Shown here: piece after piece, positions 1 to 22,818 of the stretch | How the letters are laid out: each line of letters starts with the position of its first letter | How positions within the stretch are numbered: the first letter of the stretch is position 1 | From: an uncultured Coriobacteriales bacterium | Lineage (GTDB): Bacteria > Actinomycetota > Coriobacteriia > Coriobacteriales > UMGS124 | Length of the DNA: 45,422 nucleotides | NCBI GenBank assembly: GCA_903789505.1 | Contig: CAIFEU010000003.1 | Coordinates: forward strand, 1-45,422 | Direction of reading: 5' to 3' | Position numbers and translations under genes: made by a program | Notes under the pieces: generated by a model | Told to the model about the DNA's origin: nothing | Databases searched by the model: none | The model's input: only the letters and a program-made list of their open reading frames with translations

Positions 1-21
1 AATAGCAACTCGCCAGAAACC

Positions 22-112: not shown

Positions 113-228
113 CGCCCCGCGACCGTGTCGCCGCGGGACGCCCGACGTGCCCGGACAGGCGCCGGCTCAGCCGCCGGCCTTGCGGGCGCCGGCCCTCATG
201 CAAGCCGACGCCCCCACGCCCGCGCCCG

Positions 229-1572: not shown

Positions 1573-1817
1573 GTTGGCGTCTCTTTCCTCGTAGCCCCTC
1601 GCGGCAGTTGCGGCATGTCGTCCCAGTCGACCCAGGTGGCAGGCCCGTCATCCCTTGTAGAGTCTACCGTGTCGTGTGGGCAATCTGTAGCGGAACGACG
1701 CGTTTTCGCACCCTGCCGTCAGGACACCCCTTCGCTGACCGCATGGCATCAGCCCGCGCGTGGCATCGGCCCGCACTGCGCCTCGATTGCCCGGCGATCA
1801 CACCCATGGGCCCGCAG

Positions 1818-2390: not shown

Positions 2391-2418
2391 GTGGCACCCC
2401 CATCCCCGTCCGACGCCG

Positions 2419-2476
2419 TTTCGCTACGAGTTTGTAGTGTCCTGTAGCGCTACGTTTCGAAACGATTGTAGCGAAA
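2419..2476. promoter_or_regulatory. operator-like palindrome cluster in the TetR / membrane-protein divergent intergenic region
   Basis: TTTCGCTAC (2419-2427) is inverted to TGTAGCGAAA (2467-2476). Between them lie the perfect palindromes GTAGCGCTAC (2444-2453) and CGTTTCGAAACG (2453-2464). Confidence 0.55.
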
Positions 2477-2535
2477 TGCTCCTCGCAGTACAGATGGACA
2501 GACATAAGGTGTCCCGTTTGAGAGGAGCATGAGAG

Positions 2536-3246: not shown

Positions 3247-3439
3247 GGGAGCCGTGGGCTCTCCCCGCCCTCAACGGCCCCGTGCCCCCGCCGTGCCCTC
3301 GCCCACCCCACGCCTGCGCGCCGCGTTCGCGCACCCCGCGCGAGCGCCCGGGCACCTCAAACGCCGAGCGGCCCCGCCAGCGCAATCGCACCGGCGAGGC
3401 CGCTCGTCCCTGCCCCGTGATTCTCGAACCTGTGCCTGC

Positions 3440-5302
3440 CTACCCCTGCTGCGCGGCGGCAGCGGCGGCGGACTGACGGCGCACGAAGTCCTTCTTGCGG
3501 TCGGTGGCCGAGAGCAGGCGCTTGCGCATGCGGATGTGCTTGGGCGTAATCTCGACCAGCTCGTCGTCGGCGATGTACTCCATTGCCTCCTCGAGGGTGA
3601 AGGTGCGCGGCGGGGTCAGCTGGACCGCGATGTCGGCGGTGGAGGAGCGCTGGTTGCCCAGGTTCTTGGTGCGCGCGACGTTGACGACCATGTCCCCCTC
3701 GCGCTGGCGCTCGCCCACGATCATGCCCTCGTAGCACTCGTCACCGGGGCCGACGAACAGCGTGCCGCGCTCCTGCAGCGTGCCCAGGGCGTACGCCACC
3801 GCCTTGTCGGTCGACATCGAGATCATCAGGCCGTTCTTGCGCGCGTTGATCTCGCCGGCGTAGGGGCCGTACTCCAGGAAGTTGTGGTACATCATGGCCT
3901 CGCCGTGGCTCACGTTGAGCACGCGGGTCTTCAGGCCCATCAGGCCGCGCGTCGGGATCTTGAACTTGACCTGGGCGCGGTCGTCGTAGGTCTCCATGTT
4001 CGTCATCAGGCCATCGACGTTGCCGAACAGCTCGATGACCTTGCCGGCGTACTCGGACGGCGTCTCGACGACGGCCTCCTCGTACGGCTCGAGCTTCTCG
4101 CCGTTGTCGCCCCGCTTGTAGATGACGTGCGGACGGCCGACCTGGAACTCGAAGCCCTCGCGGCGCATGGTCTCCATCAGGACGGTCAGGTGGAGCACGC
4201 CGCGACCCGACACCACGACGCCGGAGTGGTCCTCGGTCTCGTGGATCTCCATCGTGATGTTGGATTCCTTCTCCTGCATCAGGCGCTCCTTGAGCTGGCG
4301 GGCGCCCACGATGTCCTTCTGGTCCTCGCGGCCGACCAGCGGCGAGGTCGAAGCCTCGAACACGACCGACAGGGTCGGCGGGTCGACGATGATCGGGTCA
4401 AGGTGCTGCGGGTCGTCGGGCGAGGTGTAGACGTCGCCGATGTCGGTGCCCTCCACGCCCACCACGGCGCAGATGTCGCCGGCGACGGCCTGGTCGCACT
4501 CCTTGCGGCCCAGGTAGTCGAACGTGTACAGCTGGCGGACGGTCGAGGTGGACAGGTCGCCGTTGTTCTTGATGACAGCGATCGTGTCACCGGTGTGGAT
4601 GGTGCCGGAGTAGATGCGGCCGACGCCGATGCGCCCGACGAACGTGGAGTGGTCGACGTTGACGACCTGCATCGCGAGCGGGGCGTCGGGCTCGACGTCG
4701 GGCGCGGGCATCTCGTCGACGATCATGTCGAGCAGCGGGTACATGTCCATGTTGCCGTCGGAGGGGTCCAGGCGCGCGTAGCCGTTCATCGCCGAGGCGT
4801 ACACGACGTGGCCCATCGTGAACTCGAGCTGCTCGTCGGTGGCGCCCAGGTCGCACATCAGGTCGAAGACGTCGTTGACGACCTCCTCCGGGCGCGCGCC
4901 CGGGCGGTCGATCTTGTTCACGACCAGCATGATCGCAAGTGACGCCTCGATCGCGTGCTGCAGGACGAAGCGCGTCTGGGGCATCGGGCCCTCGAACGCG
5001 TCAACCAGCAGCAGCGCGCCGTCGGCCATGCGCAGAACGCGCTCGACCTCGCCGCCGAAGTCCGCGTGGCCGGGGGTGTCGATGACGTTGATCTTGATGC
5101 CCTTGTACTCGATCGAGATGTTCTTGGCGAGGATCGTGATGCCGCGCTCGCGCTCCTGGTCGTTGGAGTCGAGGATGCGGTCCTGCACCTCCTGGTTGTC
5201 GCGGAACGCATCGGTCGCCCTCAGGAGCTTGTCGCACAGCGTGGTCTTGCCGTGGTCAACGTGAGCGATGATGGCGATGTTGCGAATTGAGTCCTGACGC
5301 AT
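3440..5302 (-). CDS. typA: translational GTPase TypA/BipA
   Basis: G1 motif AHVDHGKTT, DTPGHADF and NKID motifs, with BipA-like domains throughout. Start moved to the internal ATG (MRQDSIRNIAII) at 5302, rather than the 5383 start in the ORF track. TAG stop. Confidence 0.9.
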   Translation of the reverse strand: MRQDSIRNIAIIAHVDHGKTTLCDKLLRATDAFRDNQEVQDRILDSNDQERERGITILAKNISIEYKGIKINVIDTPGHADFGGEVERVLRMADGALLLVDAFEGPMPQTRFVLQHAIEASLAIMLVVNKIDRPGARPEEVVNDVFDLMCDLGATDEQLEFTMGHVVYASAMNGYARLDPSDGNMDMYPLLDMIVDEMPAPDVEPDAPLAMQVVNVDHSTFVGRIGVGRIYSGTIHTGDTIAVIKNNGDLSTSTVRQLYTFDYLGRKECDQAVAGDICAVVGVEGTDIGDVYTSPDDPQHLDPIIVDPPTLSVVFEASTSPLVGREDQKDIVGARQLKERLMQEKESNITMEIHETEDHSGVVVSGRGVLHLTVLMETMRREGFEFQVGRPHVIYKRGDNGEKLEPYEEAVVETPSEYAGKVIELFGNVDGLMTNMETYDDRAQVKFKIPTRGLMGLKTRVLNVSHGEAMMYHNFLEYGPYAGEINARKNGLMISMSTDKAVAYALGTLQERGTLFVGPGDECYEGMIVGERQREGDMVVNVARTKNLGNQRSSTADIAVQLTPPRTFTLEEAMEYIADDELVEITPKHIRMRKRLLSATDRKKDFVRRQSAAAAAAQQG

Positions 5303-5429
5303 TCGAGCTGTACCTTTCAACGGTTTTGGCGCACCTGCGCGGGCCACGGACGTGTCTTCCGCGCGGCGCCGTGATACGGCCATGTGTTAGAGGATGGGTG
5401 ATTTTGAGCGTAGCGCCATGTTACGACCG

Positions 5430-5924
5430 CTAGACGAGCAGTTCCATCTGACCGGCCGCGGCGGGGTCCGTCCACACAAAATCTTTTGGGTGACCTGCCT
5501 TTTTGTAGAGAAGATATGCCGAGTACGCACTCGACAGCCCCTGCTCGCCGTACTCGACGATCAGGGCGTTCTTGTACGGCTGGCCCTCCTCCTCGCGGAT
5601 GGCCCCGTCGTAGGCGATCGCGTAGCGGACCGGCCGTCCCGAGAGGCCCTCGACCCTGCCGCTCTTGTGCGCGGCGCGGCGCAGGGTGTCGCGCGCCTCC
5701 CTCACGCACTCATCGACCATGTCGTCGTCGAACGAGAGCATCGCGCGGTTGCCCGACGCGTCCTCCATCGCGAGGACCGTGGTGAACCTGCCCGTCTGCC
5801 CCAAGCTCTCCAGGCCCTGGTCGACCATCTCGTTGGCGAGGTCCTCGAGCGCGCGCGAGATGGGCTCGACGTCGTCGGCGGGCTTGCCGTTGCCGGACGC
5901 GCGCCTGTTGTTACTGCCGCTCAT
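5430..5924 (-). CDS. hypothetical cytoplasmic protein (164 aa)
   Basis: Codon usage looks coding. Start chosen at MSGSNN, which is preceded by GGGAAGGAAG. It overlaps the upstream gene's stop by 14 nt. I recognise no family. Confidence 0.55.
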   Translation of the reverse strand: MSGSNNRRASGNGKPADDVEPISRALEDLANEMVDQGLESLGQTGRFTTVLAMEDASGNRAMLSFDDDMVDECVREARDTLRRAAHKSGRVEGLSGRPVRYAIAYDGAIREEEGQPYKNALIVEYGEQGLSSAYSAYLLYKKAGHPKDFVWTDPAAAGQMELLV

Positions 5925-6774
5925 CTGAGTCTTCCTTCCCATCTGCGACCGCGCCCGCGCGCGTCGCGCCCGTGATGTCCTCGTGCCCGGCGCCGCTGCC
6001 CTTAGCCTTGGCGATCGCCGTCCGCTTCCCTCGCGAGGCCCCGTCGGCTCCCCTTGCCTCTCCTCGTCGCCTTCGGCGTTCGCGCACCTTGGCGGCAAGC
6101 CTCGAGAACGCCGCGCGCACCCTCCCCCAGAAGCGCGTGAACGCGTTGCCCTCCACGCGCTGCTCCGGCGGGACGTAGTCGGGGTCGTCGATGCCGAGCT
6201 TCTCCTTGAGGGCGTGCACGCGGTCGTCGATGTCGGTGACGTGCGCCTTCACGATCTTCGACCACTTCTGGGCATCGGTGAGCACGACCGACGCGAAGAT
6301 GATGATTGCCAGCAGCACGCCCTCCACGACGAAGCGCGGGGTGGCGCGCAGGAACCGGATCGTGATGAAGCTGACGACGACACAGAGCACCAGCGCGACG
6401 ATGCAGCTGCGGATCTTGCTCAGCTCGTTCTCGCGCATCGAGAGCAGGCGGCCGCGCAGCAGGTCGAAGCCGCTCAGCCGCGCCCAGGCATCATCGGCGG
6501 CCGACACCTTGAGCTTCTCCGTCTTGACCTTCTTGCGGAATACCCTGTCGACCATCCCGTCGTTGCCATCGGCGTCGATGCCGTTGGCAAGCAGGAAGTC
6601 CCGAGCGTCGAGCGAGTATGCCTTGAAGTTGTCGACAAGGGTCGTGACCTTGCCCTCGTCCTCGAACGACTGCGACGATATCGCCTTGTCGATCCCGTAA
6701 TAGGCGAGGCGGACGTCCTGCTCGTTGGCAGTCTCGTCCAGGTCAAGGGCGCGCAGAGCCTCGTACTTGTTCAA
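5911..6774 (-). CDS. hypothetical two-TM membrane protein with a J-domain-like N-terminus lacking HPD
   Basis: Two hydrophobic helices (CIVALVLCVVVSFITIRFL and VVEGVLLAIIIFASVVLT). Likely TTG start at 6774 preceded by GGGAG. N-terminus reads NKYEALRALDLDETANEQDVRLAYYG. Basic C-terminal tail. Confidence 0.55.
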   Translation of the reverse strand: MNKYEALRALDLDETANEQDVRLAYYGIDKAISSQSFEDEGKVTTLVDNFKAYSLDARDFLLANGIDADGNDGMVDRVFRKKVKTEKLKVSAADDAWARLSGFDLLRGRLLSMRENELSKIRSCIVALVLCVVVSFITIRFLRATPRFVVEGVLLAIIIFASVVLTDAQKWSKIVKAHVTDIDDRVHALKEKLGIDDPDYVPPEQRVEGNAFTRFWGRVRAAFSRLAAKVRERRRRRGEARGADGASRGKRTAIAKAKGSGAGHEDITGATRAGAVADGKEDSDERQ

Positions 6775-7076
6775 TCTTGGTCTCCCTGCCTCGCTCGTCC
6801 GCTGACGCCGTGACGGGCTCGTCCTAACGTTGGAATCATCGTCGCATCTCTCGTGAGCGAAACCGCATAGGTTAGCCCACATCGCCATGTGCGATTCTAT
6901 CGCACGCGTTAGGACAAAGGATGGTCGGTCATCGTGACCTGAAGCGGAAGCGGGACTTCCGATGATGCCACGGCGTCTGCTCTGCACCATCCCCCATAGC
7001 AGGACCGCACGCCCATATATTATCGATGGACATGCGGTCTTTCTTTAGTGGTATTCTATTATAAAAAATAATATTT

Positions 7077-8354
7077 TTAATTATTCTCTATATCATTAGC
7101 AATTTCTTTACCAATGAGATGAGGAATGCCAACTACGAGTGCGTTGCCCATGCAGAAGGCGCGTTGTGAATCGGTCATTCCCGTATCTGTCCACCCTGCG
7201 GGAAATCCCTGAAGGCTGTCGAGCTCGTCGGGAACGAGGCGCCTCAGGCGACCGTCATCACACCTCACCACGTGCTTGAAGCGCGAGGGACCCGAACCTC
7301 CTTCACCGGTGAGAATCGTCCGAGAGGGTTTGTCAGTCGAATCGGGAAACGACATCGACCCTTCTGAATACCGATAGGCGAATCCGGTCGACTTGTTAAC
7401 GCGCTCCTCGCTTTTGGCGCCCTTGAGATACTCCCAGCGGCCCACCTGGTCTTCAGGCACGAAGTACTCCTGCGGCACGTCGTCCTCAGGAACGAGAACG
7501 TCACCGAGGTTTCTGCGAGGCCCATGGTATGCCTCCTCAATCCGGCATGTCAGCGCGGAGTTCCCCACCATGACGCCCGCCTCCATGAAGGGAGACACCT
7601 TTCCGCCACGATTGAAGGATTCGGAAGCGTCATACGGGTCGGTCGGAATCTGCACCGTCATAACCTCTTGTGGCACCTCGATTGGAAGGGCCCGCGCCAT
7701 CACACCATGGCACAGCCTCTCTCGTGCGTCCCAGCTGACATTGCGCTCCGCAAAGATGTACGTGCGCTTCCTGCGCTGCGGAAAGCCATATTCAGCACTG
7801 TTGACCACGCGCCATTCGACCGAGTAGCCCAGCGAAGCCAGGCAAGAGAGAATGATTGCGAAGTCCCGCCCCCGCTGCTTTGCCGGGGACTTCAGAAGCC
7901 TGTCCACGTTCTCGAACAGACACCATCTGACGTTGTCCTGCGATTTATCGAGTTGGATTCGGAGGAATCGATAGATGTCCCACCACAGGACGCCCTTCTT
8001 CCCCTCGATTCCCGCCGCTTGAGACAAAGGGCGCGCCACCGAGTAGTCCTGGCAGGGGAATCCACCGACGACCATGTCGACCGATGGGATGTCGCGCTTC
8101 CCCGCGTCGTATTCGTCCAGCACGAGGTCAATGTCCTCGTTGACAACCGAGTCATCCCCAAAGCGCATTTTGTAGCACCTTGCCGCGAACTGCCTTCTGT
8201 CGCTTCCCGGCTCCCATTGGTTCGCCCAAATCGTTTCGAACGGTCCGGCGGCGGGCAGCCTCCATCCCCTGTCCGCGTCGACGTAACCGTCAAGGCCCAG
8301 ACGAAAGCCCCCGACGCCCGCAAAGAGCTCGGCCACTGTAATCCTGTTGTCCAC
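7077..8354 (-). CDS. DNA (cytosine-5)-methyltransferase
   Basis: Canonical C5-MTase motifs: I ELFAGVGGF, IV GFPCQDYS, VI FENV, VIII QRRKR, X GNALVV. GTG start with a GGAG RBS. Lower GC than neighbouring genes. Confidence 0.92.
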   Translation of the reverse strand: MDNRITVAELFAGVGGFRLGLDGYVDADRGWRLPAAGPFETIWANQWEPGSDRRQFAARCYKMRFGDDSVVNEDIDLVLDEYDAGKRDIPSVDMVVGGFPCQDYSVARPLSQAAGIEGKKGVLWWDIYRFLRIQLDKSQDNVRWCLFENVDRLLKSPAKQRGRDFAIILSCLASLGYSVEWRVVNSAEYGFPQRRKRTYIFAERNVSWDARERLCHGVMARALPIEVPQEVMTVQIPTDPYDASESFNRGGKVSPFMEAGVMVGNSALTCRIEEAYHGPRRNLGDVLVPEDDVPQEYFVPEDQVGRWEYLKGAKSEERVNKSTGFAYRYSEGSMSFPDSTDKPSRTILTGEGGSGPSRFKHVVRCDDGRLRRLVPDELDSLQGFPAGWTDTGMTDSQRAFCMGNALVVGIPHLIGKEIANDIENN

Positions 8355-8435
8355 GTTTCTCCAATCGCTGACTGTGGACCAGTTCAGCCAGTAATAGTAG
8401 CCAAATCCTATTGAATGATCAATACTGTTGTTGAA

Positions 8436-9797
8436 CTACATTTTTGAATCATTTTCTTTCAATATTCTCTCTATCTCATCCTGTAAATAACTTTGATTGA
8501 GCCAGAAGCACTTCTTGGTCACTGGCATGCCGTGTGGCTGGGGGAGGACGTCGGCAGAGTCCCTGCCATGAGGCCGCACATGGCAGCAGCGATTTTCGCT
8601 CGATTTGACGGAAACGTCCGCCCTGCCGAGCTCGACGTTTCTGCGCATCTGGTCGTAACAGCGCTTGGCCTCGGGGATGTCCCGCTCGGGCATCTGCCAA
8701 AAGCAGAGGTCGGAGAGGCGGTAGAAGCCCCACTCATCTTCACGGTAGATGACGAAGAGCCAGAGCTGCTGAAGGTTTCCGTAGAAGTCCGATTGTTCGA
8801 ACGGCGTCGATTCGAGCTTAAAATAGTCAAATGCCGGGAAGGACACGGCCTCCTTCGGTCGGCCGGTTCTCTTGAGGCGTATCGTTTTAGTCTTCGCCCC
8901 CGCCTTGACGAACTCCTCTATGTCCGCGTCGTCGTCAACGCCGAGAATCCTCCTCGTTACCAGCGCAGCGGCATTCTTCGGGAGGCGCCTCCCGGACACG
9001 GCAACACCAAACCTCTCGCATAGCTGACCCAAAGTCATTCCAAAGAACGGCTGGAATCTCTTCCGCAGCAACGAGAGGAGGTCAAGTTCTCTTTCGTCTT
9101 CACTGCGTTCAATTTTCTGACTGCCGCTCAGCAGCTTGTTCTCTATTACCGTCATATATGACGCCTTGATTGCCCAGGCTCGGGGCTTGGCAGGGACGTC
9201 GGAATACGGCTGCGAACGTCTTACGGAGGAGTTTGCGGCCTTCGTGCATGCCTCGAGGTAGAGTGTGTCGGAACCGGAGATGTCCTCCGCGTGACCCGCC
9301 CTGACCTTGTTTACTATCTTTTCCCAGTCGGCCTTGAACTGGGCGCGGTCCTCTTCGCTGGGGTCCCATTCCTCAGCGAACAGAACTTCATAATCGATTG
9401 GGTTTAGATTCTCTTCCCACAGATACACGATGAGCAGAATCGAGGAAGCCTTCTTCATGAAATGGCTCGTCTCGAAGCTCTCCTTCACGACCTTGTTGTA
9501 ATCGATCATCGTGATTACGAGTCGCTCTTTTGCGACAAGTGACCCTTTGGGATTCCTCTTCATGGGAGTTGTTTTTAGCTCAAGACCTGCTTCAGAAAAA
9601 TCAGGCTCTTGGTTGCTGTTTATGTCATACTTGAAATAATATTCTTCAATGGCATTTCCGAATGACCCTCGCCTTACCTTTGGGTCATCGATTTGCTCGA
9701 TGTGCACTTTTTCTCTCAGCGTATGGCCCACAAGAAATTTGGCGTAATGGATGATGGACTCTCTCGAAGTGATGTCGTAGGGAGGTTCGTTCGCCAT
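8436..9797 (-). CDS. type II restriction endonuclease, MutH/Sau3AI family (probable GATC specificity)
   Basis: 453 aa. N-terminal D...E-x-K catalytic signature PDFSEAGLELKT, as in MutH/Sau3AI. Further segments (PIDYE..., QPYSD..KP..A, CHVRPH near the C-terminus) match my recollection of Sau3AI. Sits immediately upstream of the C5-MTase. Confidence 0.7.
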   Translation of the reverse strand: MANEPPYDITSRESIIHYAKFLVGHTLREKVHIEQIDDPKVRRGSFGNAIEEYYFKYDINSNQEPDFSEAGLELKTTPMKRNPKGSLVAKERLVITMIDYNKVVKESFETSHFMKKASSILLIVYLWEENLNPIDYEVLFAEEWDPSEEDRAQFKADWEKIVNKVRAGHAEDISGSDTLYLEACTKAANSSVRRSQPYSDVPAKPRAWAIKASYMTVIENKLLSGSQKIERSEDERELDLLSLLRKRFQPFFGMTLGQLCERFGVAVSGRRLPKNAAALVTRRILGVDDDADIEEFVKAGAKTKTIRLKRTGRPKEAVSFPAFDYFKLESTPFEQSDFYGNLQQLWLFVIYREDEWGFYRLSDLCFWQMPERDIPEAKRCYDQMRRNVELGRADVSVKSSENRCCHVRPHGRDSADVLPQPHGMPVTKKCFWLNQSYLQDEIERILKENDSKM

Positions 9798-9899
9798 CTC
9801 ACTCCTCCAGTGCCATTAGGGCAGGTTTCATCCCGACCGGGAGCGTATTTCCGCACGTCGTACGCACTCAGAAAAGATAGAAGACAACCAGCAGTCTTC

Positions 9900-10562
9900 T
9901 CATGCCACGTCGATAAACCTGTCGAGAGCCGCAAGCGCCAGCCGCATGCGAAGACCAGCGTTCTGAACATGGTTACCGGGCGTCTTTTCGAAGTGCGTCT
10001 TACAGCCAGCTCCGGAAAGGATGTCCAAGGTCAGGCGCGTCTGCCCCTCAATCGCACGAAGGCGAGGGATTGAGGCGCGCCGTTCACGAGACCCCAAGCT
10101 GACGTAGACAAATCCGCCAGGATTCTCGCACTCGTCAAGTTGAGAGGCGAGCCATTCATTCCAGCCATCGTACCAAAGCGAGCCAGAGACGCTCGCCGCA
10201 GCCCCAAACATCGACGTGCAAACGAATGAATACAGCGAGAAAAGGCCAGCAAGCGAATAGCCTGCTATTGCGCGGCAAGATGGGGTAGGAGACAACCCCA
10301 TGCTTTGCTCGCACGCCGAAGCGTCACCGATAAGGCTCTTAAGGAATGAAGGTGCGCCCCCGGCAAAGGAACCACCCTTCGGACTGAGAGGTTGCGCGGG
10401 CCACGGACTAAGCTTGGCGTTCCATTCATTCACGTAAATTTGCAGTACCGAGCTCGAGAGGTCGTGAGCGACTTCGTCGAGGTCAAACGGCCGCTCGGCA
10501 GAATCGATGAGCCAGATACACTCGTTGTTTGATGCGTGCCCTCGATGAAACGCAAATTCCAT
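9900..10562 (-). CDS. esterase-family alpha/beta hydrolase
   Basis: 220 aa. Nucleophile elbow GYSLAG and a downstream SGSLWY motif typical of the putative esterase family. Confidence 0.65.
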   Translation of the reverse strand: MEFAFHRGHASNNECIWLIDSAERPFDLDEVAHDLSSSVLQIYVNEWNAKLSPWPAQPLSPKGGSFAGGAPSFLKSLIGDASACEQSMGLSPTPSCRAIAGYSLAGLFSLYSFVCTSMFGAAASVSGSLWYDGWNEWLASQLDECENPGGFVYVSLGSRERRASIPRLRAIEGQTRLTLDILSGAGCKTHFEKTPGNHVQNAGLRMRLALAALDRFIDVA

Positions 10563-10596
10563 GGCCCTCCTTCGAGGTGCCCCGTGCCCGACCCAC

Positions 10597-11367
10597 CTAT
10601 CTCGGCCTGTTGGGCGCCAGGAACTTCACCACCTCGCCGATTGCGAAGTCCATCGTGTCGGGGTTGGAGAACGGGTGGTCGGCATGCTCCACCTCGACCA
10701 GCTCGATCACGTTGTCGTCGGCGAACTTGCGCGTGTCCTCGATGGGCACGACCTCGTCGCGCGTGCCGTGCAGCAAGAGAATACGGTCGGCATGGTCGAA
10801 GTACTCGTACTGCCGGACGTCGTGCTCGCGCAGGTCGTCCAGGAACGCCTGGTCGAGCTCGACCTTGCGGTCGTAGCCCTTGAGCACCTTCTTGCCGCGC
10901 GCCATCGCGTCGAGCTCCGCCTGGTCAAAGTTGTCAAGCATGACGTGATACATGTCGATGGCGGGGCAGCGCAGGGCGATTGCCTCGAACGGGTCGTCCA
11001 CCTCGATGATATAGCGCAGGGCAATGTAGCCGCCGTAGCTGGTCGAGTACAGGTAGAGGTGCTCGGCCCCCAGTTCCCGCCGGGCATGGTCGATTGCCAG
11101 CGTGAGGTAGGTCATGCTCTCGGTCGCGGAGAGTCGCTTGCGACCGTCGTTGCCGTGACCAGGCCAGTCGAAGGTCAGCACCGCGTAGCCCGGGTACTTG
11201 GCGGTGAGACGCTCGGCGAACTTCTGCACGGCGTGGTTGTCCTTGTTGCCGCCGAAGCCGTAGGTCGCCAGCGCGACGTGCGAGAACGCGCGGGCGTCCT
11301 TCTGGCAGTACAGTTTGCACCGAACGCTCAGGCCCTGCTCGTTGATGTTGAAGTACTTGTCCCTCAT
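10597..11367 (-). CDS. alpha/beta hydrolase
   Basis: 256 aa. Contains DWPGHGNDG, then the nucleophile region YSTSYGG, then the C-terminal HADHPF histidine motif. Confidence 0.7.
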   Translation of the reverse strand: MRDKYFNINEQGLSVRCKLYCQKDARAFSHVALATYGFGGNKDNHAVQKFAERLTAKYPGYAVLTFDWPGHGNDGRKRLSATESMTYLTLAIDHARRELGAEHLYLYSTSYGGYIALRYIIEVDDPFEAIALRCPAIDMYHVMLDNFDQAELDAMARGKKVLKGYDRKVELDQAFLDDLREHDVRQYEYFDHADRILLLHGTRDEVVPIEDTRKFADDNVIELVEVEHADHPFSNPDTMDFAIGEVVKFLAPNRPR

Positions 11368-11377
11368 GGCGGAGTCG

Positions 11378-11899
11378 CTAGTCCTCGACCTCGAGCAGCT
11401 CGATGTTGAAGTTCAGCGGCTTGCCCGCCAGGCGATGGTTCAGGTCGAAGTCGACGGTGTCGTTGCGCGCCTTCACGACCTCGAGCTCGGCCTTGCCGCG
11501 CCGATGCGCGATGATCTTGTGCTTCTCGCCCACAGCGACCTCGATGACGCGGCTCTTGTCCTTGGTGCCCACAAAGCTAGCCTTGCCGTGCTGGGCGGTC
11601 TTGATGGTCATCGGGACGGGCTTGTCGTTCTCGTCATAGAAGTAGAGCGTCTCGCCAAACCGCACGTGCATGACGTTCGATGGGTCGGGCATGCCATAGG
11701 CGTCCTTGGGTTCGAGGTGCACATCGCGCACCTCGCCGACCTTCATCTCATCGACGGCGCGGTCGAACCCGGGAATCATCTGCCCCTTCATGCAGGTGAA
11801 CTCTATCGGCTTGTCGCGGTCGCGCGAGCTGTCGAACACGGTGCCGTCGTCCAGGGTGCCGACGTAGTGGACCTTTACCTTCTTGCCAGCGTTGCTCAT
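11378..11899 (-). CDS. FKBP-type peptidyl-prolyl cis-trans isomerase (SlyD-like)
   Basis: VKVHYVGTLDDGTVFDSS...IPGFD...M.VGE FKBP signature. Start moved to MSNAGKK (ATG at 11899), preceded by GGGAGGA. Confidence 0.85.
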   Translation of the reverse strand: MSNAGKKVKVHYVGTLDDGTVFDSSRDRDKPIEFTCMKGQMIPGFDRAVDEMKVGEVRDVHLEPKDAYGMPDPSNVMHVRFGETLYFYDENDKPVPMTIKTAQHGKASFVGTKDKSRVIEVAVGEKHKIIAHRRGKAELEVVKARNDTVDFDLNHRLAGKPLNFNIELLEVED

Positions 11900-11989
11900 A
11901 AATATCCTCCCGAATCGATTCCTCGCGACAGAGCGGGGCAACAGGGCGGGCAAGGCCCGACCCTAGGAGCCCCAGCCCCCAAACGCGAA

Positions 11990-12018
11990 CAGGCCAGAAG
12001 CATAACGCTTCTGGCCTG
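11990..12018 (-). terminator. 12-bp perfect stem-loop just outside the partial tRNA-Ala copy
   Basis: CAGGCCAGAAGC-ataac-GCTTCTGGCCTG. On the minus strand it is followed by TTCGCGTTTGGGGG. Confidence 0.6.
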
Positions 12019-12031
12019 CACAATTCTCTAA

Positions 12032-12073
12032 TCTGGTGGAGATGATGGGGTTCGAACCCACGACCTCAGGCTT
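12032..12073. repeat. 42-bp direct repeat: partial copy of the tRNA-Ala 3' end (att-like, distal copy)
   Basis: Identical base-for-base to 14604-14645 (tctggtggagatgatggggttcgaacccacgacctcaggctt). There is no 5' acceptor strand or D-arm beyond it. Confidence 0.9.
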
Positions 12074-12144
12074 TCAGGAGGTCCGCGCTGTATCGCCCGA
12101 AGTGGGACGAGCGCCACGGCTCTGACGGACGGACCTACGGCCAG

Positions 12145-13419
12145 ATGTGCATAGGGCGCGCGACGTCGGACGTCACGAGCACGGCGGCAGACGGCGGCAC
12201 CCTCCCCACGGCGCGAGGGGCCGCGTCCCGGCCCGCCCAGCCGCCCAGGCCGGAGCCGCTGACCCTGACCAACGTCGCCGACGCGCTGCGGGACGGGCCG
12301 CCGACGCCGGACCCGGAGCTCATATCGGGCGTGCTGCGCGTCGGCCAGAAGATGCTCCTCAGCGCGCCGCCGAAGGTCGGCAAGACGTGGCTCGCAATCG
12401 ACCTGGCGACGGCGCTCGCGACGGGCGGGGCGTGGCTCGGCTTCCGTTGCAGGCGATGCCAGGTCGTCTACGCGAACCTGGAAGTCTCGGAGACGTCATT
12501 CCTCATCCGATGCGACAAGGTGCTCAGGTCCCGGGCGTTCGACCCCGGCGACGCGGAGCCGATGCTGGCGTTCGAGGGGCGCGGCATGGGGCTCGACGCC
12601 CAGCAGTTCGCGGACCGGCTCATAGCGACGTGGCGGGGCATGGGCGGGCCTTCGTGGGGGTGCGTCATCGTCGACTGCGTCTACCAGCTGGAGACGGGCG
12701 ACGAGAACGCGGTGAAGGACGTGCGGCCGCTCGTCGCCCAGCTCGACCGGATAGGGCGCACCATCGGGTGCGCGCTCATCGCGATTCACCACCACAGCAA
12801 GGGCGCGTCAGGCTCCAAGGCTTCGATAGACCGCGCGGCGGGGAGCTCGGTCTTCGCGCGCTGGCCCGACGCGCTCATAGACGTGTCGCCCCTCGACTTC
12901 GAGGGCGCCGCGGACGACCCGGGGCGCTCGGAGGCTTGCCGCGAAGCCTGTCGCGAGATTGAGGGCCGCCAGGGCGCCGGGGCGTACCGGATGGAGTTCG
13001 ACCTGCGGGAGTTCCCCGGGCGGAGGCCGCTCGACCTGTTCTTCACGGACGGCCACTTCGTGCCCGACGTGCGCGGCGCCCTGGCGGAGCTCGCAGAGGT
13101 GGGTTCGTTCGAGGCCGCGGGACGTCGCGGGGGCGCGGCAAGCAGGGCCAGGGGCGAGGAGCAGCGCCAGGCAAAGGCGGGGCTCATCGGGGAGTGCGTC
13201 GCCAGGTGCCGCCAGGCCGGGGAGCCCGCGACCATCGCAGCCGTGCTCAGCCAGTACAACGACCTGGCTGCCGGGGCCGGGCTGGCGAGGGTGCAGAGGG
13301 CGACGCTCGGCGCGTGGCTCAAGCCCACCGGCGCGATGCCGTTCCACCTTGAGCCGGGGCCGGGGGGCAGCGTCGTGACGCCCGACGGGGCGGCGGGGTC
13401 CGACGCGGACGGGGCTTAG
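12145..13419 (+). CDS. RepA / AAA_25-like (RecA-fold) ATPase of mobile-element type
   Basis: Walker A APPKVGKT, Walker B CVIVDC, and IAIHHHSKG, which is typical of the RepA/AAA_25 family. The reading frame stays open upstream to 12046, through the att repeat, so the start is uncertain. Confidence 0.7.
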   Translation: MCIGRATSDVTSTAADGGTLPTARGAASRPAQPPRPEPLTLTNVADALRDGPPTPDPELISGVLRVGQKMLLSAPPKVGKTWLAIDLATALATGGAWLGFRCRRCQVVYANLEVSETSFLIRCDKVLRSRAFDPGDAEPMLAFEGRGMGLDAQQFADRLIATWRGMGGPSWGCVIVDCVYQLETGDENAVKDVRPLVAQLDRIGRTIGCALIAIHHHSKGASGSKASIDRAAGSSVFARWPDALIDVSPLDFEGAADDPGRSEACREACREIEGRQGAGAYRMEFDLREFPGRRPLDLFFTDGHFVPDVRGALAELAEVGSFEAAGRRGGAASRARGEEQRQAKAGLIGECVARCRQAGEPATIAAVLSQYNDLAAGAGLARVQRATLGAWLKPTGAMPFHLEPGPGGSVVTPDGAAGSDADGA

Positions 13420-13421
13420 CC

Positions 13422-13702
13422 GTGGTGGATGGGCGAAGGCCCTAAGGGGGTCCCGTTCCATCCACCACGCCCAGGGCCACGTCTGGTGGATGGGCGGAAG
13501 CCTTAAGGGGGTCCCATGCCGCCCACCACGCGGCGGGGCACGATGGAGCGTCTCTCTGTCCACAGGATGGAGGAGGCCACTATTTGGCGGTGGCGGATGG
13601 GCGGGACCCCTTTATCGCTCCCACCCACGCCCAAGGCTTCGGGCGGTCGACCCGTGGGCGTGGTGGATGGGTGCGACCCCCTAAAGGCTCCCACCCACGC
13701 CC
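13422..13702. repeat. four iteron-like imperfect palindromic units (about 47-52 bp each)
   Basis: 5' arms GGTGGATGGGCG at 13424, 13485, 13592 (GGCGGATGGGCG) and 13662 (GGTGGATGGGTG). Each is paired with a complementary arm (CCATCCACCAC 13458, CCGCCCACCAC 13519, CTCCCACCCACGCC 13618 and 13688). Confidence 0.85.
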
Positions 13703-13806
13703 AAGCCTGTGGACAGAAAGGGACGTGGGCGGCGAGGACGACGAGACGATTGGAGAGCGACGTGTACTTCGACGACAAGGGACCGGGCCCGATTGAGAGG
13801 GCAATC

Positions 13807-14031
13807 ATGGATGGCGACGAGCGCGAGGCGACGTACCAGGCGCTTCTGAAGACGGCGCGTCTGCTGGACGAGTGCGAGAGCGACCGCGACGCCCGGCCGC
13901 TCGCCACCACCATGGAGGAGCTTACGGACAAGCTGAAGGCGCTCGACGCGGAGGCGGCGACGAAGACGAAGCGCAAGGACAGCGTGCTCGCCCAGGTGGC
14001 GGCCCAGTACCGTCGCACCGTGAACGAATGA
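13807..14031 (+). CDS. small helical hypothetical protein (74 aa) of the islet
   Basis: ATG preceded by GAGAGGG. Followed by a strong terminator. The longer 13516 start in the ORF track runs through the repeat cluster and is not credible. Confidence 0.45.
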   Translation: MDGDEREATYQALLKTARLLDECESDRDARPLATTMEELTDKLKALDAEAATKTKRKDSVLAQVAAQYRRTVNE

Positions 14032-14066
14032 ACGACATGCGAGCCGAGGGGCGCGGAGGCGCCGAG

Positions 14067-14107
14067 GGGGTCGCGCGGGGAGTCTCGCGCGGCCCCTGTC
14101 TTTTTTT
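14067..14107 (+). terminator. rho-independent terminator
   Basis: GGGGTCGCGCG-loop-CGCGCGGCCCC stem followed by TGTCTTTTTTT. Confidence 0.75.
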
Positions 14108-14494
14108 GGGCGCGGGGGGATTTCGGCCCTGGCCGCCGAGACGGGCCGGGGCGGCCGAATAAAAAGACCCCCCTACCCCCCGCCCGCCGGTCACCGGCCA
14201 CGCCACACGCCGCGCGAAGGCACGCGAGACCGCAGACGAGCCGCCACGAGGCGGGAACATCGCGACGAGGGGACGTCCGGCATCGGGGCGGAGCCCCCGG
14301 CAGGTGTCGCCGGACGCGGCGGCGCGTTAGGCGGATGGTTGGCGCGGGCACGGGGGCGACGGGCAGGAGGTCGTCGGGGACTTCTCGACTCACGACGCCC
14401 ACGACCGACTGAAAAACGCTCCCTCACTGTGGAGAGCAAAGGCGGCCCAGGCACGGCCACGGCGGCGGGAATCGTCCCGAAAATCGGGAAAGTT

Positions 14495-14546
14495 TTATCC
14501 CAGCGTTATCCCAGCCGTTATCCCAAGGCCGATTTTCTTGGGATAA
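14495..14546. promoter_or_regulatory. TTATCCCA repeat set (three direct copies plus one inverted) next to the att core
   Basis: TTATCCCAG at 14495 and 14506, TTATCCCAA at 14518 (11-12 bp phasing), and inverted TTGGGATAA at 14538. Confidence 0.6.
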
Positions 14547-14561
14547 AACGCCCAAAACGCA

Positions 14562-14600
14562 AGCAGGCCAGGGGTCTTGATGCCCCTGACCTGCTGTTTT
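14562..14600. terminator. stem-loop with flanking T/A runs immediately 3' of tRNA-Ala
   Basis: AGCAGGCCAGGGG-loop-CCCCTGACCTGCT (one mismatch) followed by GTTTT on the + strand. On the minus strand it is followed by TTGCGTTTTGGG. Confidence 0.6.
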
Positions 14601-14603
14601 GCG

Positions 14604-14645
14604 TCTGGTGGAGATGATGGGGTTCGAACCCACGACCTCAGGCTT
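14604..14645. repeat. 42-bp direct repeat, tRNA-proximal copy
   Basis: Identical to 12032-12073. Covers the 3' 39 nt of tRNA-Ala plus 3 nt downstream. Confidence 0.9.
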
Positions 14646-14681
14646 GCAAAGCCCGCGCTCTCCCAGCTGAGCTACATCCCC
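14606..14681 (-). tRNA. tRNA-Ala (anticodon TGC)
   Basis: The reverse complement folds as a cloverleaf: acceptor GGGGATG/CATCTCC with the G3:U70 identity pair, anticodon loop TTTGCAA, T-loop GGTTCGAAC, encoded CCA. Confidence 0.93.
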
Positions 14682-14741
14682 AGATAGAATAAACGCCTCA
14701 GCGGCGACTCGGCTCACGCTGGGGCGTTTATTTGTGAAAAA

Positions 14742-14818
14742 TGGTGGGCCCGACAAGGTTTGAACTTGTGACCTCACGGTTATCAGCCGTGCGCTCTGAC
14801 CAACTGAGCTACGGGCCC
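14742..14818 (-). tRNA. tRNA-Ile (anticodon GAT)
   Basis: Reverse complement GGGCCCGTAGCTCAGTTGGTCAGAGCGCACGGCTGATAACCGTG...GGGCCCACCA. Clean cloverleaf with anticodon loop CTGATAA. Confidence 0.93.
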
Positions 14819-14831
14819 GAACAGCTAAGTT

Positions 14832-14860
14832 AATATAAGTAAAGCCAGGGTCAGCGTCAA
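14832..14860 (-). promoter_or_regulatory. sigma-70-type promoter for the tRNA-Ile/tRNA-Ala pair
   Basis: On the minus strand: TTGACG, 17 nt, TATATT. The -10 element ends 13 nt upstream of the tRNA-Ile 5' end. Confidence 0.7.
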
Positions 14861-15254
14861 CTCCCATCTTCGATTGGGTCGCATCGCTCGTGGTTCACCA
14901 TTTTTCATCCACAAGTCCGCGCTGAGCTGGCCGCGGGCCATCTCGGTAGTTCAGTGGTTACCCCACGAAGGAAGGGAAGGCAGGAGAGGCGGGCGCACCA
15001 GCCTCCGAGACGGATCGACGCCTGCCCCAAAAGGCCAACGGTATGGGAACGGCACACGACCTCGCCATCCCCACGCCGCCCATTCGCGCTGCGGCTCTTC
15101 GCTCCTCCCACTCGCATGCGCGCGGGGGATTTCACCACCGTATGCCATTGAGAGTAGAATGCTGGTTATCGGTGTCGCCCGCGGGACCCCATCCACGCAG
15201 GGCGCCATCGCTCAGGACGCTTACGCAGTCATGAACTGGAGAGGGGAGGCCAGC

Positions 15255-15788
15255 GTGATTCGCGTTGCACTCGAGACGCTCGTCATGGGCAACGTCCCCG
15301 GGGCGTCCCTGCTCATCCTCAGACCGCTGGTCGACGAGCCGATGAACAACCGCATCCTGCCCATCTGCATCGGCCCGGTCGAGGCGGCCGCCATCGGCAA
15401 GGCGCTTTCGGACGAGAAGGACTCCCGTCCGATGACCCACAGCCTGATCTGCACCGTCATCGGGACGCTCGGCGGCAAGCTGCTGCGCGTCTGCATCCCC
15501 CGCGTCAAGGGCACCATCTTCTACGCGTCACTGCACATCCAGCAGGGGGACTCCCTGCTCAAGGTCGACGCACGGCCCAGCGACGCGATCGCGATCGCGC
15601 TACGCATGGACGTCCCCATGTACGTGAGCGAGTCGGTCATGGAGTCGGCCGGCTACCCGGCATGGGTCAACATCAAGAGCGAGCAGGACAGGGCCGAGAT
15701 GGAGCAGTTTCACAAGTTCGTCGAGACGGTCACGCCCGACGACTTCCGCACGGAGAGCATGCGCCACAACGGCGAGGACGGCGAGTAG
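15255..15788 (+). CDS. bifunctional nuclease (BFN / DUF151) family protein
   Basis: ILPICIGPVEAAAI...RPMTH...ARPSDAIAIALR motifs typical of PF02577. GTG start after GGAGAGGGGAGG, with ATG 15231 as an alternative. The 14874 start in the ORF track is not credible. Confidence 0.75.
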   Translation: MIRVALETLVMGNVPGASLLILRPLVDEPMNNRILPICIGPVEAAAIGKALSDEKDSRPMTHSLICTVIGTLGGKLLRVCIPRVKGTIFYASLHIQQGDSLLKVDARPSDAIAIALRMDVPMYVSESVMESAGYPAWVNIKSEQDRAEMEQFHKFVETVTPDDFRTESMRHNGEDGE

Positions 15789-15886
15789 GGGAGGCCTCTC
15801 GCCGAAAACAGAGAGGGGACGGACGCAGGTCAGCTCACCTGACCGCGCCCGCCCCCTCTCGCACGTTCCACACCCGTGTCGGTGTC

Positions 15887-18727
<2,841 letters not shown>

Positions 18728-18825
18728 TTCAGGCCCTTCTCGTCATGTGAACGCGCGGGCGCCCCACCTGCGGGCTCCCGCGCCCTTCGCGCCGACCCCG
18801 TCGGCCGGCGTCGCGCCGCTACCGC

Positions 18826-20901
<2,076 letters not shown>

Positions 20902-21146
20902 TTCTCAGCAAGGCTGACGGCGCTTGAGAGGTCGATTCATCCGATTCGTCGGAGGTGAGGAGACGAGAGGCTTCGCCCGGCACGCCCGACGTCCCGCCCG
21001 GCCGCTCCGACACGGCGGGAGGCGGGCACGCGAGGGACCGTCGGGCGCGGGCCCCTATACATGCCATCCATTATAGGGGAGAGTCTTTACAACATGACCC
21101 AAAAAATGCCCTCTCACAGTTGCCACAATCGTTTTCAAGGCCCTTT

Positions 21147-21707
21147 TTAGGACCTCGATGACTTTTTCCATTCCTTGACGGAAATTAGGGCGTTCAGGAC
21201 GTGTTCGCGAAGCGTCGGGTCGGTGATTCCCGACACCATGTCGACGGCTTCCCGACGCTCCTCGGGCGACAGCGGCACGGACTGGGGAGGCACCGCCTCG
21301 TCGTGGTTGGAGTAGCCCTCCGAGAATCCTCCCTCCCGCGCCCGGCGCGAGAGCCTGAACGTGACCTTGTCGACGACGAGGTCCTCCTGGTTCGTGCGCT
21401 CGCAGCGCGCCCTCCACTCGCGCAGAATCTCGAACGAGCGCATCTGGAACTCGTACATCCAGATGTTCGAGTCCACGTAGACGACCATCTCCACGCTGTT
21501 GCGGTGCGAGCGAAACGACAGCCCATTGCAGTGGTCCCGCAGCGTGGGGTCGCCCATCGTCGCCCACAGGCGCAGCGCGCGGGCGACCTTGGCCATGGTC
21601 GGCGTGGCGCGGAACAGCCCGCCCATCACCCCGTCGGCGAGCTCGCCCACCCCCCTCTCGGCGTAGGAGGTGCCCAGGTAGGTCCTGACCTCTTCGTCCA
21701 GGCTCAT
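21147..21707 (-). CDS. DUF721 / DciA-like protein
   Basis: Position between recF and gyrB is conserved in Actinomycetota. The pattern LW...G..L..H......R...L.V.VDS..W..E......IL matches DUF721. Overlaps the recF stop by 4 nt. Confidence 0.7.
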   Translation of the reverse strand: MSLDEEVRTYLGTSYAERGVGELADGVMGGLFRATPTMAKVARALRLWATMGDPTLRDHCNGLSFRSHRNSVEMVVYVDSNIWMYEFQMRSFEILREWRARCERTNQEDLVVDKVTFRLSRRAREGGFSEGYSNHDEAVPPQSVPLSPEERREAVDMVSGITDPTLREHVLNALISVKEWKKSSRS

Positions 21708-22816: not shown

Positions 22817-22818
22817 CC

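Follow-up and report, generated by a model that had tools for sequence, protein, structure and literature searches.

The islet at positions 12,032 to 14,645 of the DNA analysed here (the window, a stretch of 45,422 nucleotides from an uncultured Coriobacteriales bacterium) is very probably a stranded remnant, left by a deletion in a ~7-kb element of integrative, self-replicating type whose target is the anticodon-loop region of tRNA-Ala(TGC). It is most likely the leftover right-hand third of such an element, and a fossil rather than a minimal satellite. A preliminary description had proposed a decayed remnant of a larger integrative element as one of two readings, and this one is borne out by full elements and an empty site in conspecific strains, by the junction and by the parts that are missing. 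One locus in one species presents the parent architecture, the empty site, the complete element, a crippled remnant and a base-exact junction together: a clean textbook case of integrative elements becoming fixed.

The tRNA-Ala site in the window and in conspecific strains

The islet is bracketed by a 42-bp perfect direct repeat (12,032-12,073 and 14,604-14,645), which can alternatively be drawn as 45 bp with one mismatch, the last three matches being due to chance. The 39-nt core pattern of this att repeat occurs exactly twice in the window, a count reached in 0 of 100 shuffles. ARAGORN calls tRNA-Ala(tgc) at 14,606-14,681 and tRNA-Ile(gat) at 14,742-14,818, both on the reverse strand; Rfam agrees and returned nothing besides these two tRNAs (E ≤ 1). 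By the ARAGORN coordinates the repeat therefore spans the 3′ end of tRNA-Ala, 40 nt including CCA, plus 2 nt downstream, so the duplication reported in the preliminary description stands while its split into 39 and 3 nt is off by one. Comparison with the strain locus L001 extends attL to 14,604-14,655, a full 52-bp identity block within the functional tRNA-Ala gene that matches L001 5,799-5,850 at 100%. The displaced tRNA-Ala 3′ fragment, here called attR* (12,032-12,073), retains 42 of the 52 bp of the block found in intact siblings; missing from it are the 5′ half of the anticodon stem and the greater part of the anticodon loop. Foreign DNA thus lies between an intact tRNA-Ala gene and a displaced piece of it, both in direct orientation.

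Across the window, with its remnant, and contigs from strains of the same species (uncultured Coriobacteriales, flanks 97-99% identical to the window), the site occurs in three states: remnant, empty and occupied by a complete element. For L001, identity is 99.0% between its positions 1-5,843 and window 6,234-12,076, and 97.5% between its positions 12,025-21,620 and window 13,784-23,387. L158 and L164 have an empty attB, the target site being unoccupied and the region upstream of the FKBP gene joined directly to an intact tRNA-Ala. L001 and L002 carry a complete ~7.0-kb element (7,038 bp with an integrase in L001), and L160 and L161 show attR and the integrase end of another element variant. 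Integrase-bearing elements at the exact site in conspecific strains, together with the empty attB, confirm the signature of site-specific integration into a tRNA 3′ end.

The L001 element encodes, in order and all on one strand, a tyrosine integrase, an HTH regulator, an HTH_17 excisionase, three small ORFs, a primase-polymerase and a helicase with an NrS-1-type helix-bundle domain (HBD) and a RepA-like domain, followed by iterons, an 88-aa ORF and arm-type repeats. No FtsK-like domain and no recognisable conjugation or mobilisation gene were found among its genes. The window lacks the front part of this set: tblastn detected no homologs of the sibling integrase, excisionase or primase-polymerase in the whole 45 kb, and the only recombinase among the window ORFs by Pfam is an IS30-type transposase far from the islet. 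The earlier statement that the islet contains no recombinase holds in both searches; neither islet nor window has an island-borne integrase, while the siblings L001, L160 and L161 each have one.

Read from the sequence, a host hairpin just outside attR (11,990-12,018, reverse strand) is the same one that lies directly 3′ of the intact tRNA-Ala in the empty sites of L158 and L164, where it presumably serves the tRNA-Ile/tRNA-Ala operon as native terminator. A terminator search found an element-supplied terminator for the regenerated tRNA-Ala at 14,562-14,595 (reverse strand), kept in L001 and L157 with only the loop differing.

Searches around the left flank returned little beyond the species. 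Exact copies of the window's FKBP and hydrolase proteins are not on record, and an exact 58-nt pattern of left flank plus att had no match in metagenome contigs; the other strains differ from the window by 2 nt in the left flank. None of the 11 closest loci with FKBP relatives (L003-L013, of 80 loci in GTDB species representatives) has a tRNA nearby, and the FKBP/tRNA-Ala adjacency is therefore species-specific; on an empty site the loci are uninformative. An alignment scan of IMG/VR with the helicase returned no sibling elements, only distant phage primases that share the LYRPKWD/GRTYGQM motif of the HBD. The window's gyrB has an in-frame stop; with at least this one probable sequence error, the assembly quality is imperfect.

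The deletion junction

We located the junction by comparing the window with attR and the helicase gene of L001. It lies at 12,067-12,073 (forward strand) in a 7-bp microhomology, CAGGCTT, which corresponds to the 3′ strand of the anticodon stem plus two loop nucleotides and also to helicase codons 99-101. The window reads ...ACGACCT CAGGCTT tcaggaggtccgcg, L001 attR reads ...ACGACCT CAGGCTT gcaaagcccg, and the L001 helicase gene reads ...CATCGAC CAGGCTT tcaggaggtccgcg. The att identity block is 52 bp long (35+17 bp) in L001, ending at the anticodon stem, on its 5′ side, as in complete elements generally, and is also 52 bp in the attR copies of L160 and L161, compared with 42 bp (35+7 bp) in the window. 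Beyond CAGGCTT the window continues as helicase sequence, the next 50 nt matching L001 at 49 of 50. Since the block stops at CAGGCTT and runs directly into helicase codon 99, we infer one ~4.5-kb deletion. How large the deleted segment was and what it carried would follow from the gene order conserved in L001, L002 and L157: a direct ancestor with TTATCCCA arms and the window's helicase allele was not found, and L001 is a cousin.

Read from attR, the parent would have had arm repeats, then genes for the tyrosine integrase, the HTH regulator and the excisionase, three small ORFs, the primase-polymerase and HBD-helicase genes, an iteron origin, the 88-aa ORF and a non-coding arm that again bears arm repeats, up to attL in the tRNA. 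One ~4.5-kb deletion would have joined the CAGGCTT copy at the anticodon-loop edge of attR to the one at helicase codon 99, removing the 10 innermost bp of the attR block, all of the arm on the integrase side including its arm-type repeats, the genes int and xis, another four ORFs, the primase-polymerase gene and the first 98 helicase codons. Still present are attL, intact and carrying a functional tRNA-Ala that has the element's own terminator, the origin-like iterons, the small ORF and a helicase ORF for which no promoter is evident. Both arms are presumably required for excision, and the remnant is predicted to be unable to excise via attL × attR even with an integrase in trans; it could disappear through homologous recombination between the two 42-bp copies, and in no other way, or be reshuffled with incoming siblings.

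The deletion was probably, at slightly better than even chances, begun by the element's own integrase at attR. Among 1222 pairs of repeats of at least 7 bp that could delete int yet spare attR, 10 (0.8%) touch the anticodon loop, which favours integrase involvement. Integrase-promoted recombination at secondary (pseudo-) att sites is known for lambda, and here too one deletion endpoint falls at the edge of attR's inferred overlap region. Unlike in lambda, however, the partner in the helicase gene has no recognisable second half-site: this pseudo-site, CAGGCTTTCAGG, shares with the att core one core half-site (CAGGC) and 4 of 7 overlap (loop) positions, a resemblance that makes it at best a weak candidate for a true secondary att site. 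Slippage between the two 7-bp direct repeats would account for the same junction without any integrase, and we consider it only a little short of an even prospect.

Contents of the islet

The gene that crosses the junction (12,067-13,419, forward strand, with homology from codon 99) is a 5′-truncated helicase gene of the type with an NrS-1-like HBD and a RepA/AAA_25 domain. Its AAA_25 ATPase ORF (12,145-13,419) has a P-loop domain that passes the Pfam threshold (E = 7.8e-29; 101 bits, cut-off 27), and both the frame and the Walker motifs are intact. As described previously, the frame is open upstream through the att repeat to 12,046. The suspicion of a truncated 5′ end was also correct: full-length homologs have 539 aa, and the window gene aligns to them from residue 99 only (residues 99-538, 68% identity), the alignment beginning within the att repeat. 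The first usable start is ATG 12,145, corresponding to M125 of the 539-aa homolog, and no promoter-like site was found upstream of the truncated ORF.

Pfam assigns the L001 helicase PF22763 (the HBD, residues 75-136) and PF13481. The window copy is cut within the HBD and its ORF has no Pfam match to PF22763; it thus lacks a complete N-terminal HBD. With the full-length homolog as query, residues 27-137 match the helix-bundle domain of NrS-1 primase (PDB codes 6A9W, 6K9A, 7RR3) and residues 167-384 match the hexameric helicase RepA of RSF1010 (PDB code 1G8Y). The homolog has the HBD in common with the NrS-1 primase-polymerase, with the catalytic domain encoded here as a separate 170-aa gene upstream; the window copy is without this gene and most of the HBD. 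What remains of the helicase gene has neither a frameshift nor a stop, and its dN is not raised (0.11 on its branch, compared with 0.14 and 0.18). This lack of degradation would fit either a recent deletion or a truncated protein that is still under selection. The window and L001 helicase genes are 71% identical in nucleotide sequence; the allele downstream of the junction occurs only in the window contig, and a homolog search found the truncated form on one contig of a single assembly.

Directly 3′ of the helicase gene, repeat analysis identified an origin-like iteron cluster (13,412-13,720) of four ~50-bp palindromic units (TGGTGGATGGG...CCATCCACCA), arranged as two pairs and flanked by an inverted TGTGGACAG motif. 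The clusters of L001 (11,628-11,966) and L157 have the same architecture with another repeat sequence, and the cluster is a putative replication origin. It is followed by a small ORF (13,762-14,031, forward strand), identified by homology to siblings, whose 88- or 89-aa homologs come after the iterons in L001, L002 and L157. The preliminary description had recognised this ORF as one of 74 aa; it is more likely 89 aa long, starting from GTG at 13,762, given its 88-aa homolog in L001 (85% identity, E = 1e-43). It has no match in Pfam, PHROG or NCBIfam. An intrinsic terminator, a 14-bp stem and then a T run, lies behind it at 14,066-14,107 (forward strand).

Comparison with L001 delimits a non-coding arm at 14,108-14,493, in which 14,108-14,330 and 14,421-14,493 are ~90-100% identical between the two and a variable patch (14,331-14,420) lies between. 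The stretch 13,791-14,330 is ~90-100% identical between elements whose helicases are only ~70% identical. Neither Pfam nor PHROG supports an ORF in the ~570 bp of the islet that had been described as lacking a credible one. For a 299-aa reverse ORF (13,503-14,402), as for the other long ORFs that overlap the islet, there is no family match, and they look like high-GC artefacts. Evidence for a structured RNA in the arm is unconvincing (no Rfam match; fold z = -0.18 on the forward and -2.3 on the reverse strand).

The arm ends in arm-type repeats (14,495-14,546), three direct copies of TTATCCCA and one inverted. A pattern count gives four copies in the window, all of them here, and 0 of 100 shuffles reach four. 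The lost integrase is predicted to have bound these repeats through its N-terminal domain. The equivalent L001 motif, KTTCCCCC, occurs in the two att arms only; arm repeats are in both arms of L001, compared with the attL arm alone in the window. Sibling integrases are 34% identical in their N-terminal 80 residues and 95% identical in the remainder, and between L001 and L160 the arm motif and the integrase N-domain change in parallel (TTCCCCC to TTTTGTCA). Because N-domains co-vary with arm repeats in this way, a foreign sibling integrase would not match TTATCCCA arms. At least four arm-repeat types were seen: TTATCCCA, TTATCCCG, TTCCCCC and TTTTGTCA. A search for three TTATCCC arm repeats listed at least 169 loci from metagenome and viral collections, none of which was element-related by tblastn or blastn; no donor of a cognate integrase was among the matches listed.

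Alternative explanations and relation to known systems

The second reading in the preliminary description was a minimal non-autonomous element, CIME-like or a satellite of a satellite, moved in trans by a sibling integrase. Its attL, arm repeats, iterons and helicase ORF are intact, the sibling elements that circulate in the species have integrases with the same core specificity, and CIMEs are a recognised category, decay products of integrative elements that have lost their recombination genes (PMC5704250). We nevertheless regard it as very improbable: attR is short by 10 of 52 bp, a loss that takes in the second stem half and most of the anticodon loop, the attR arm with its repeats is wholly gone, the primase-polymerase is absent and the helicase HBD mostly cut, the N-domains of known sibling integrases fit other arm motifs, and the truncated form is on one contig only. 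The reading is unsupported because attR is broken and the replication module incomplete. No better are the chances of a remnant kept for a function, for example with its iterons and truncated helicase as an incompatibility decoy against siblings, or against phages whose replication modules are related, or for a selected module of small ORF and non-coding arm. An intact helicase frame and motifs with no excess dN would agree with this, as would the conservation of 13,791-14,330 across elements with divergent helicases; against it, the truncated ORF has no promoter-like site upstream, the form is known from one assembly, there is no defence or other family match, and recent homologous exchange at the common site explains the attL-proximal conservation equally well.

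Even less credence can be given to a chimeric join in a metagenome-assembled contig. The stop in gyrB, an essential gene, indicates that the contig has errors, and several element variants coexist in the species. However, the join has 7 bp in common, far under any assembler k-mer, collapse over a 42-52-bp att repeat would yield an empty site, which is a different structure, and the downstream helicase allele is peculiar to this contig (71% to L001) and so was not borrowed from a known co-assembled variant. In a more elaborate reading, which is unlikely on the whole, the element's own integrase would have joined attR to the helicase pseudo-site, and the remnant would persist as a resident partner for siblings, offering them iterons, an attL that is still intact and a 0.5-kb module that is nearly identical, and driving mosaicism, perhaps with iteron-based exclusion. 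Sibling elements would compete for one tRNA-Ala attB and diversify by swapping cassettes of N-domain and arm repeats.

As a deletion remnant, the islet by itself is an ordinary mobile-element fossil, a known kind of biology, and annotating it as such prevents it from being taken for a new integrase-less satellite. It resembles islands in tRNA genes of the Islander type in its regenerated tRNA, displaced 3′ fragment and conspecific empty site. The anticodon loop is one of three crossover subsites for such islands (PMC4383910); the identity block of intact siblings extends from the 3′ end of the tRNA across the anticodon stem-loop, as for the "A" subsite, and the crossover would lie in the anticodon loop. 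The window copy differs in being damaged, with the integrase gone and the displaced fragment clipped. Like a CIME, it derives by decay and has lost integration and transfer genes; a CIME, however, keeps both att sites usable, whereas the window attR, with 42 of 52 bp and no arm, would not appear to be so.

The complete L001 element is like PICI, SaPI and P4 satellites in being small (7 kb), without structural genes, and in having int, an HTH_17 excisionase, a primase-polymerase and iterons directly 3′ of the helicase. Its replication proteins resemble those of temperate phages. The trio of int, AlpA/Xis and primase would count for SatelliteFinder only as a "Type C" candidate (PMC10085698); L001 has all three, and the window has only the truncated helicase. 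Unlike PICI and P4, L001 is all on one strand with no divergent stl/str pair, and no helper is known. Helper-hijacking genes (terS, ppi, cpm, sid/psu, capsid) had no Pfam or PHROG match in the window or the L001 element, the small ORFs being unassigned. We also considered an AICE and rejected it because L001 has no FtsK/SpoIIIE-type Tra gene.

The parent family has no name in any library searched. The islet is a lead to this family of ~7-kb elements, integrative and replicative, which adjoin gyrA near the replication origin in uncultured Coriobacteriales. Its integrases combine a common core and catalytic part with swapped arm-binding domains and matching repeats, a testable diversification of specificity.

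The tRNA-Ala site in the window and in other strains

The window spans the part of the chromosome around the replication origin in an actinobacterium of high GC content; among named organisms, MAGs of uncultured Coriobacteriales and Coriobacteriaceae come closest to it. The islet follows dnaA, dnaN, recF, gyrB, gyrA, a bifunctional-nuclease-domain gene and two tRNA genes, tRNA-Ile(gat) (14742-14818) and tRNA-Ala(tgc) (14606-14681), both on the minus strand and both in agreement with Rfam. Beyond it lie genes for an FKBP isomerase, a hydrolase and a restriction-modification pair, while yidC, jag, rsmG, an IS30-type transposase gene, parA and parB occupy the opposite side of dnaA.

The final 40 nt of tRNA-Ala, including CCA, and 2 nt downstream (14604-14645) recur exactly at 12032-12073. 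The 42-bp duplication of the preliminary description is thus exact, but divides as 40 + 2 and not as 39 + 3 nt. A 39-nt core pattern of this repeat has two matches in the window and none in 100 shuffled sequences. The bracketed DNA likewise matches its earlier description: an AAA_25 ATPase ORF (12145-13419; Pfam E=7.8e-29), four palindromic repeat units of ~50 bp (13412-13720), a small ORF with its end at 14031, ~570 bp in which no ORF has support, and four TTATCCCA repeats (14495-14546) absent elsewhere in the 45 kb. Only the small ORF is revised, an 89-aa product from a GTG at 13762 being more likely than one of 74 aa.

The site was compared across contigs that encode the helicase homolog P0003 or near-identical FKBP proteins (clustered at ≥98% identity). 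The JGI metagenome contig L001, whose protein is also encoded by an NCBI Coriobacteriales MAG, shares 99.0% identity with the window in the left flank and 97.5% in the right. Its FKBP gene and tRNA-Ala, the same two as in the window, are separated by a 7,038-bp element encoding a tyrosine integrase (456 aa), a 238-aa HTH protein, an HTH_17 excisionase, three small ORFs, a 170-aa primase-polymerase and a 539-aa HBD-helicase, followed by an iteron cluster and an 88-aa ORF. Contig L002 has the same element, and L160 and L161 carry a different variant with a 463-aa integrase adjoining attR. Two contigs, L158 (141.7 kb) and L164, have an empty attB, with the FKBP upstream region and a hairpin joined directly to an intact tRNA-Ala. 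The site is therefore polymorphic within the species, being empty, filled by a complete element or holding the short form of the window. The refuting case of a duplication with no empty site in related strains does not apply, and the proposed site-specific integration into tRNA-Ala is confirmed.

One metagenome (JGI 3300063116) yielded both the occupied L001 (40-kb contig) and the empty L164 (1.7-kb contig): either the sample mixes carriers of the element with strains lacking it, or excision takes place in that population. Upstream of FKBP, three short contigs of this species (L159, L162 and L163) break off ~85-175 nt from the gene, at the att repeat or just short of it, as heterogeneity of the site in those samples would predict.

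A deletion junction within the helicase gene

The att direct repeat of L001 is 52 bp long, and the identical block is present in the attR copies of L160 and L161. Starting 2 nt past the 3' end of the tRNA, it reaches the 5' side of the anticodon stem (...CAGGC TTGCAAA GCCCG). In Williams' classification, islands that cross over in the anticodon loop show an identity block that stops exactly at this stem. In the window the repeat ends at ...CAGGCTT and continues with tcaggaggtccgcgctgtatcgcc..., the sequence that follows CAGGCTT at codons 99-101 of the L001 helicase gene (10295-10301); the next 50 nt match at 49 positions. Because the window passes from CAGGCTT straight into helicase codon 99, a single deletion between two 7-bp copies of CAGGCTT, 4,461 bp in L001 coordinates, explains the entire structure. 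Such a deletion would have removed the inner 10 bp of attR and the integrase-side arm, together with int, the regulator, xis, three small ORFs, the primase-polymerase gene and 98 helicase codons. A tblastn search of the window with all L001 element proteins found counterparts only for helicase residues 99-538 (68% identity) and the small ORF (85%), which upholds the reported lack of a recombinase.

The ATPase gene records the same event. In PHROG profiles its product corresponds to the C-terminal half of ~750-aa phage 'DNA primase' proteins, and its only close homologs, P0002 and P0003 (539 aa each, 68-69% identity), have an NrS-1-type helix-bundle domain (HBD; PF22763) preceding AAA_25. Among solved structures, homolog residues 27-137 match the NrS-1 primase HBD and 167-384 the RSF1010 RepA helicase. 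The window aligns to these proteins from residue 99 onward only (QAFRRSALYRPKWDERHG...), so that the HBD, which spans residues 75-136, is cut. This homology begins upstream of the first ATG, within the open frame that crosses the att repeat, and the suspected truncation of the 5' end is thereby supported. Beyond this loss the gene is not degraded as the preliminary description had envisaged for a pure remnant, since its frame is free of stops and frameshifts, its dN branch (0.11) does not exceed those of the homologs (0.14 and 0.18), and both Walker motifs, A and B, are kept; dN/dS is 0.31-0.37 in comparison with the two full-length homologs. A recent date for the deletion is probable. The first usable start corresponds to residue 125, with no promoter-like site found upstream of it, and we regard residual function of the gene as improbable.

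The generic route to such a deletion would be slippage or illegitimate recombination between the 7-bp direct repeats. An L001-like element offers 1222 maximal direct-repeat pairs (≥7 bp) able to delete or truncate int while sparing at least 20 bp of attR, of which 10 (0.8%) touch the anticodon loop, a count made after the junction had been seen and in a cousin of the element, not its ancestor. The left endpoint sits in the anticodon loop region, which favours involvement of the integrase, and the helicase pseudo-site shares with the att core the half-site CAGGC and 4 of 7 loop positions, without a second half-site. We lean slightly towards an integrase-initiated deletion, by recombination at a secondary site or by abortive attR cleavage repaired through microhomology.

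A probable decayed remnant and its presumed loss of mobility

Two readings had been offered for the islet: a decayed remnant, or a minimal satellite-type element using an integrase supplied in trans. The empty sites, the complete siblings and the junction speak for the former. The islet is a damaged tRNA-integrated island, a known kind of feature, and very probably descends by decay from a larger element; the reconstruction is unusually clean and does not challenge current understanding.

The missing 10 bp comprise most of the anticodon loop, one recognised crossover subsite for islands in tRNA genes (PMC4383910), and the second strand of the anticodon stem. The motif KTTCCCCC occurs seven times in L001, always within the two att arms (three copies directly upstream of int, four adjoining attL), a number reached in 0 of 100 shuffles. 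The equivalent TTATCCCA set of the window adjoins attL only, the other arm being deleted. From residue 81 on, the integrases of L001 and L160, two siblings at one attB, share 95% identity, compared with 34% over their first 80 residues, and the repeats just upstream of int switch from TTCCCCC in L001 to TTTTGTCA in L160, while the remaining arm is ~92% identical (segments concerned: L001 5973-6001 and 6058-6300; L160 2130-2215, reverse strand). From this pattern, the KTTCCCCC and TTATCCCA motifs appear to behave as arm-type sites, and the arm-binding domain with its sites looks like a swappable cassette, an exchange worth noting among the siblings. Since arm repeats change with the integrase N-terminal part, a sibling integrase acting in trans would probably fail to match even the surviving arm. 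The replication module is also incomplete, with the primase-polymerase absent and the HBD cut. Together, the loss of the inner 10 bp of attR and of one arm, the mismatched integrases and the incomplete replication module argue against the satellite-type reading. Strict CIME status is ruled out with it: a CIME retains both att sites (PMC5704250), and the remnant has lost the inner 10 bp of attR and its arm.

The parent family and neighbouring variation

Identity between the remnant and L001 is mosaic. Identity amounts to 60-85% in the helicase, and the iterons are different, varying in step with it; 13791-14330 is ~90-100% identical; identity then falls at a variable patch (14331-14420) and again at the arm repeats. 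The non-coding segment 3' of the small ORF (14032-14330) is ~94-100% identical between sibling elements, compared with ~89% for the small ORF, and contains nested GC-rich hairpins and facing terminators; Rfam gave no match, and folding no clear signal. The segment may serve as a cis site for packaging, transfer or regulation, or be simply DNA exchanged recently. Judging from this mosaic, elements sharing one site evidently swap modules, and a remnant that stays there with its attL intact gives such exchange a homologous partner.

A third relative, L157, keeps the gene order but differs in its iterons and has TTATCCCG arm repeats. Together with the same element-borne terminator as in its relatives, it adjoins the 3' end of a different tRNA (L157 3690-3831; ...GGATTCGAAC / GGGGGCACCA end), so that more than one tRNA serves the family as a target. 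This contig terminates inside the tRNA.

With int, excisionase, primase-polymerase and helicase in 7 kb and no structural genes, the parent element resembles the core of P4-like and PICI/SaPI satellites, and its iteron origin directly 3' of the helicase is comparable to the SaPI rep-ori layout. Its replication proteins have their nearest counterparts in temperate phages of Gram-positive hosts, and no packaging or capsid-redirection gene was recognisable in it. An int, AlpA and primase trio alone is considered an unreliable 'Type C' call by the SatelliteFinder authors (PMC10085698). Identity as an AICE was rejected, the family having no FtsK-type transfer gene; its members may be satellites, mobilisable elements or simply integrative plasmids.

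Elsewhere in the window, the essential gene gyrB (18826-20901, minus strand) has an in-frame stop at codon 200 (20302-20304). The L001 ortholog is 99% identical, with Glu at that codon and otherwise nearly unchanged; the stop is probably a sequencing or consensus error of the contig, or a minority variant. The IS30-type transposase gene (HTH_38 + rve; 31877-33076), between rsmG and parA, has 72% GC within a stretch of 44-53% GC that adjoins the genes of the replication origin. The hydrolase-bipA segment varies by strain (window 5911-10562, L158 11325-16098): the window, L001 and apparently L160 and L161 encode a C5 cytosine methylase and a MutH/Sau3AI-like endonuclease (51-57% GC), in place of which L158 and L159 encode a 1065-aa PLD-nuclease/helicase/DUF3427 protein. 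This segment looks like a spot at which defence genes are swapped.
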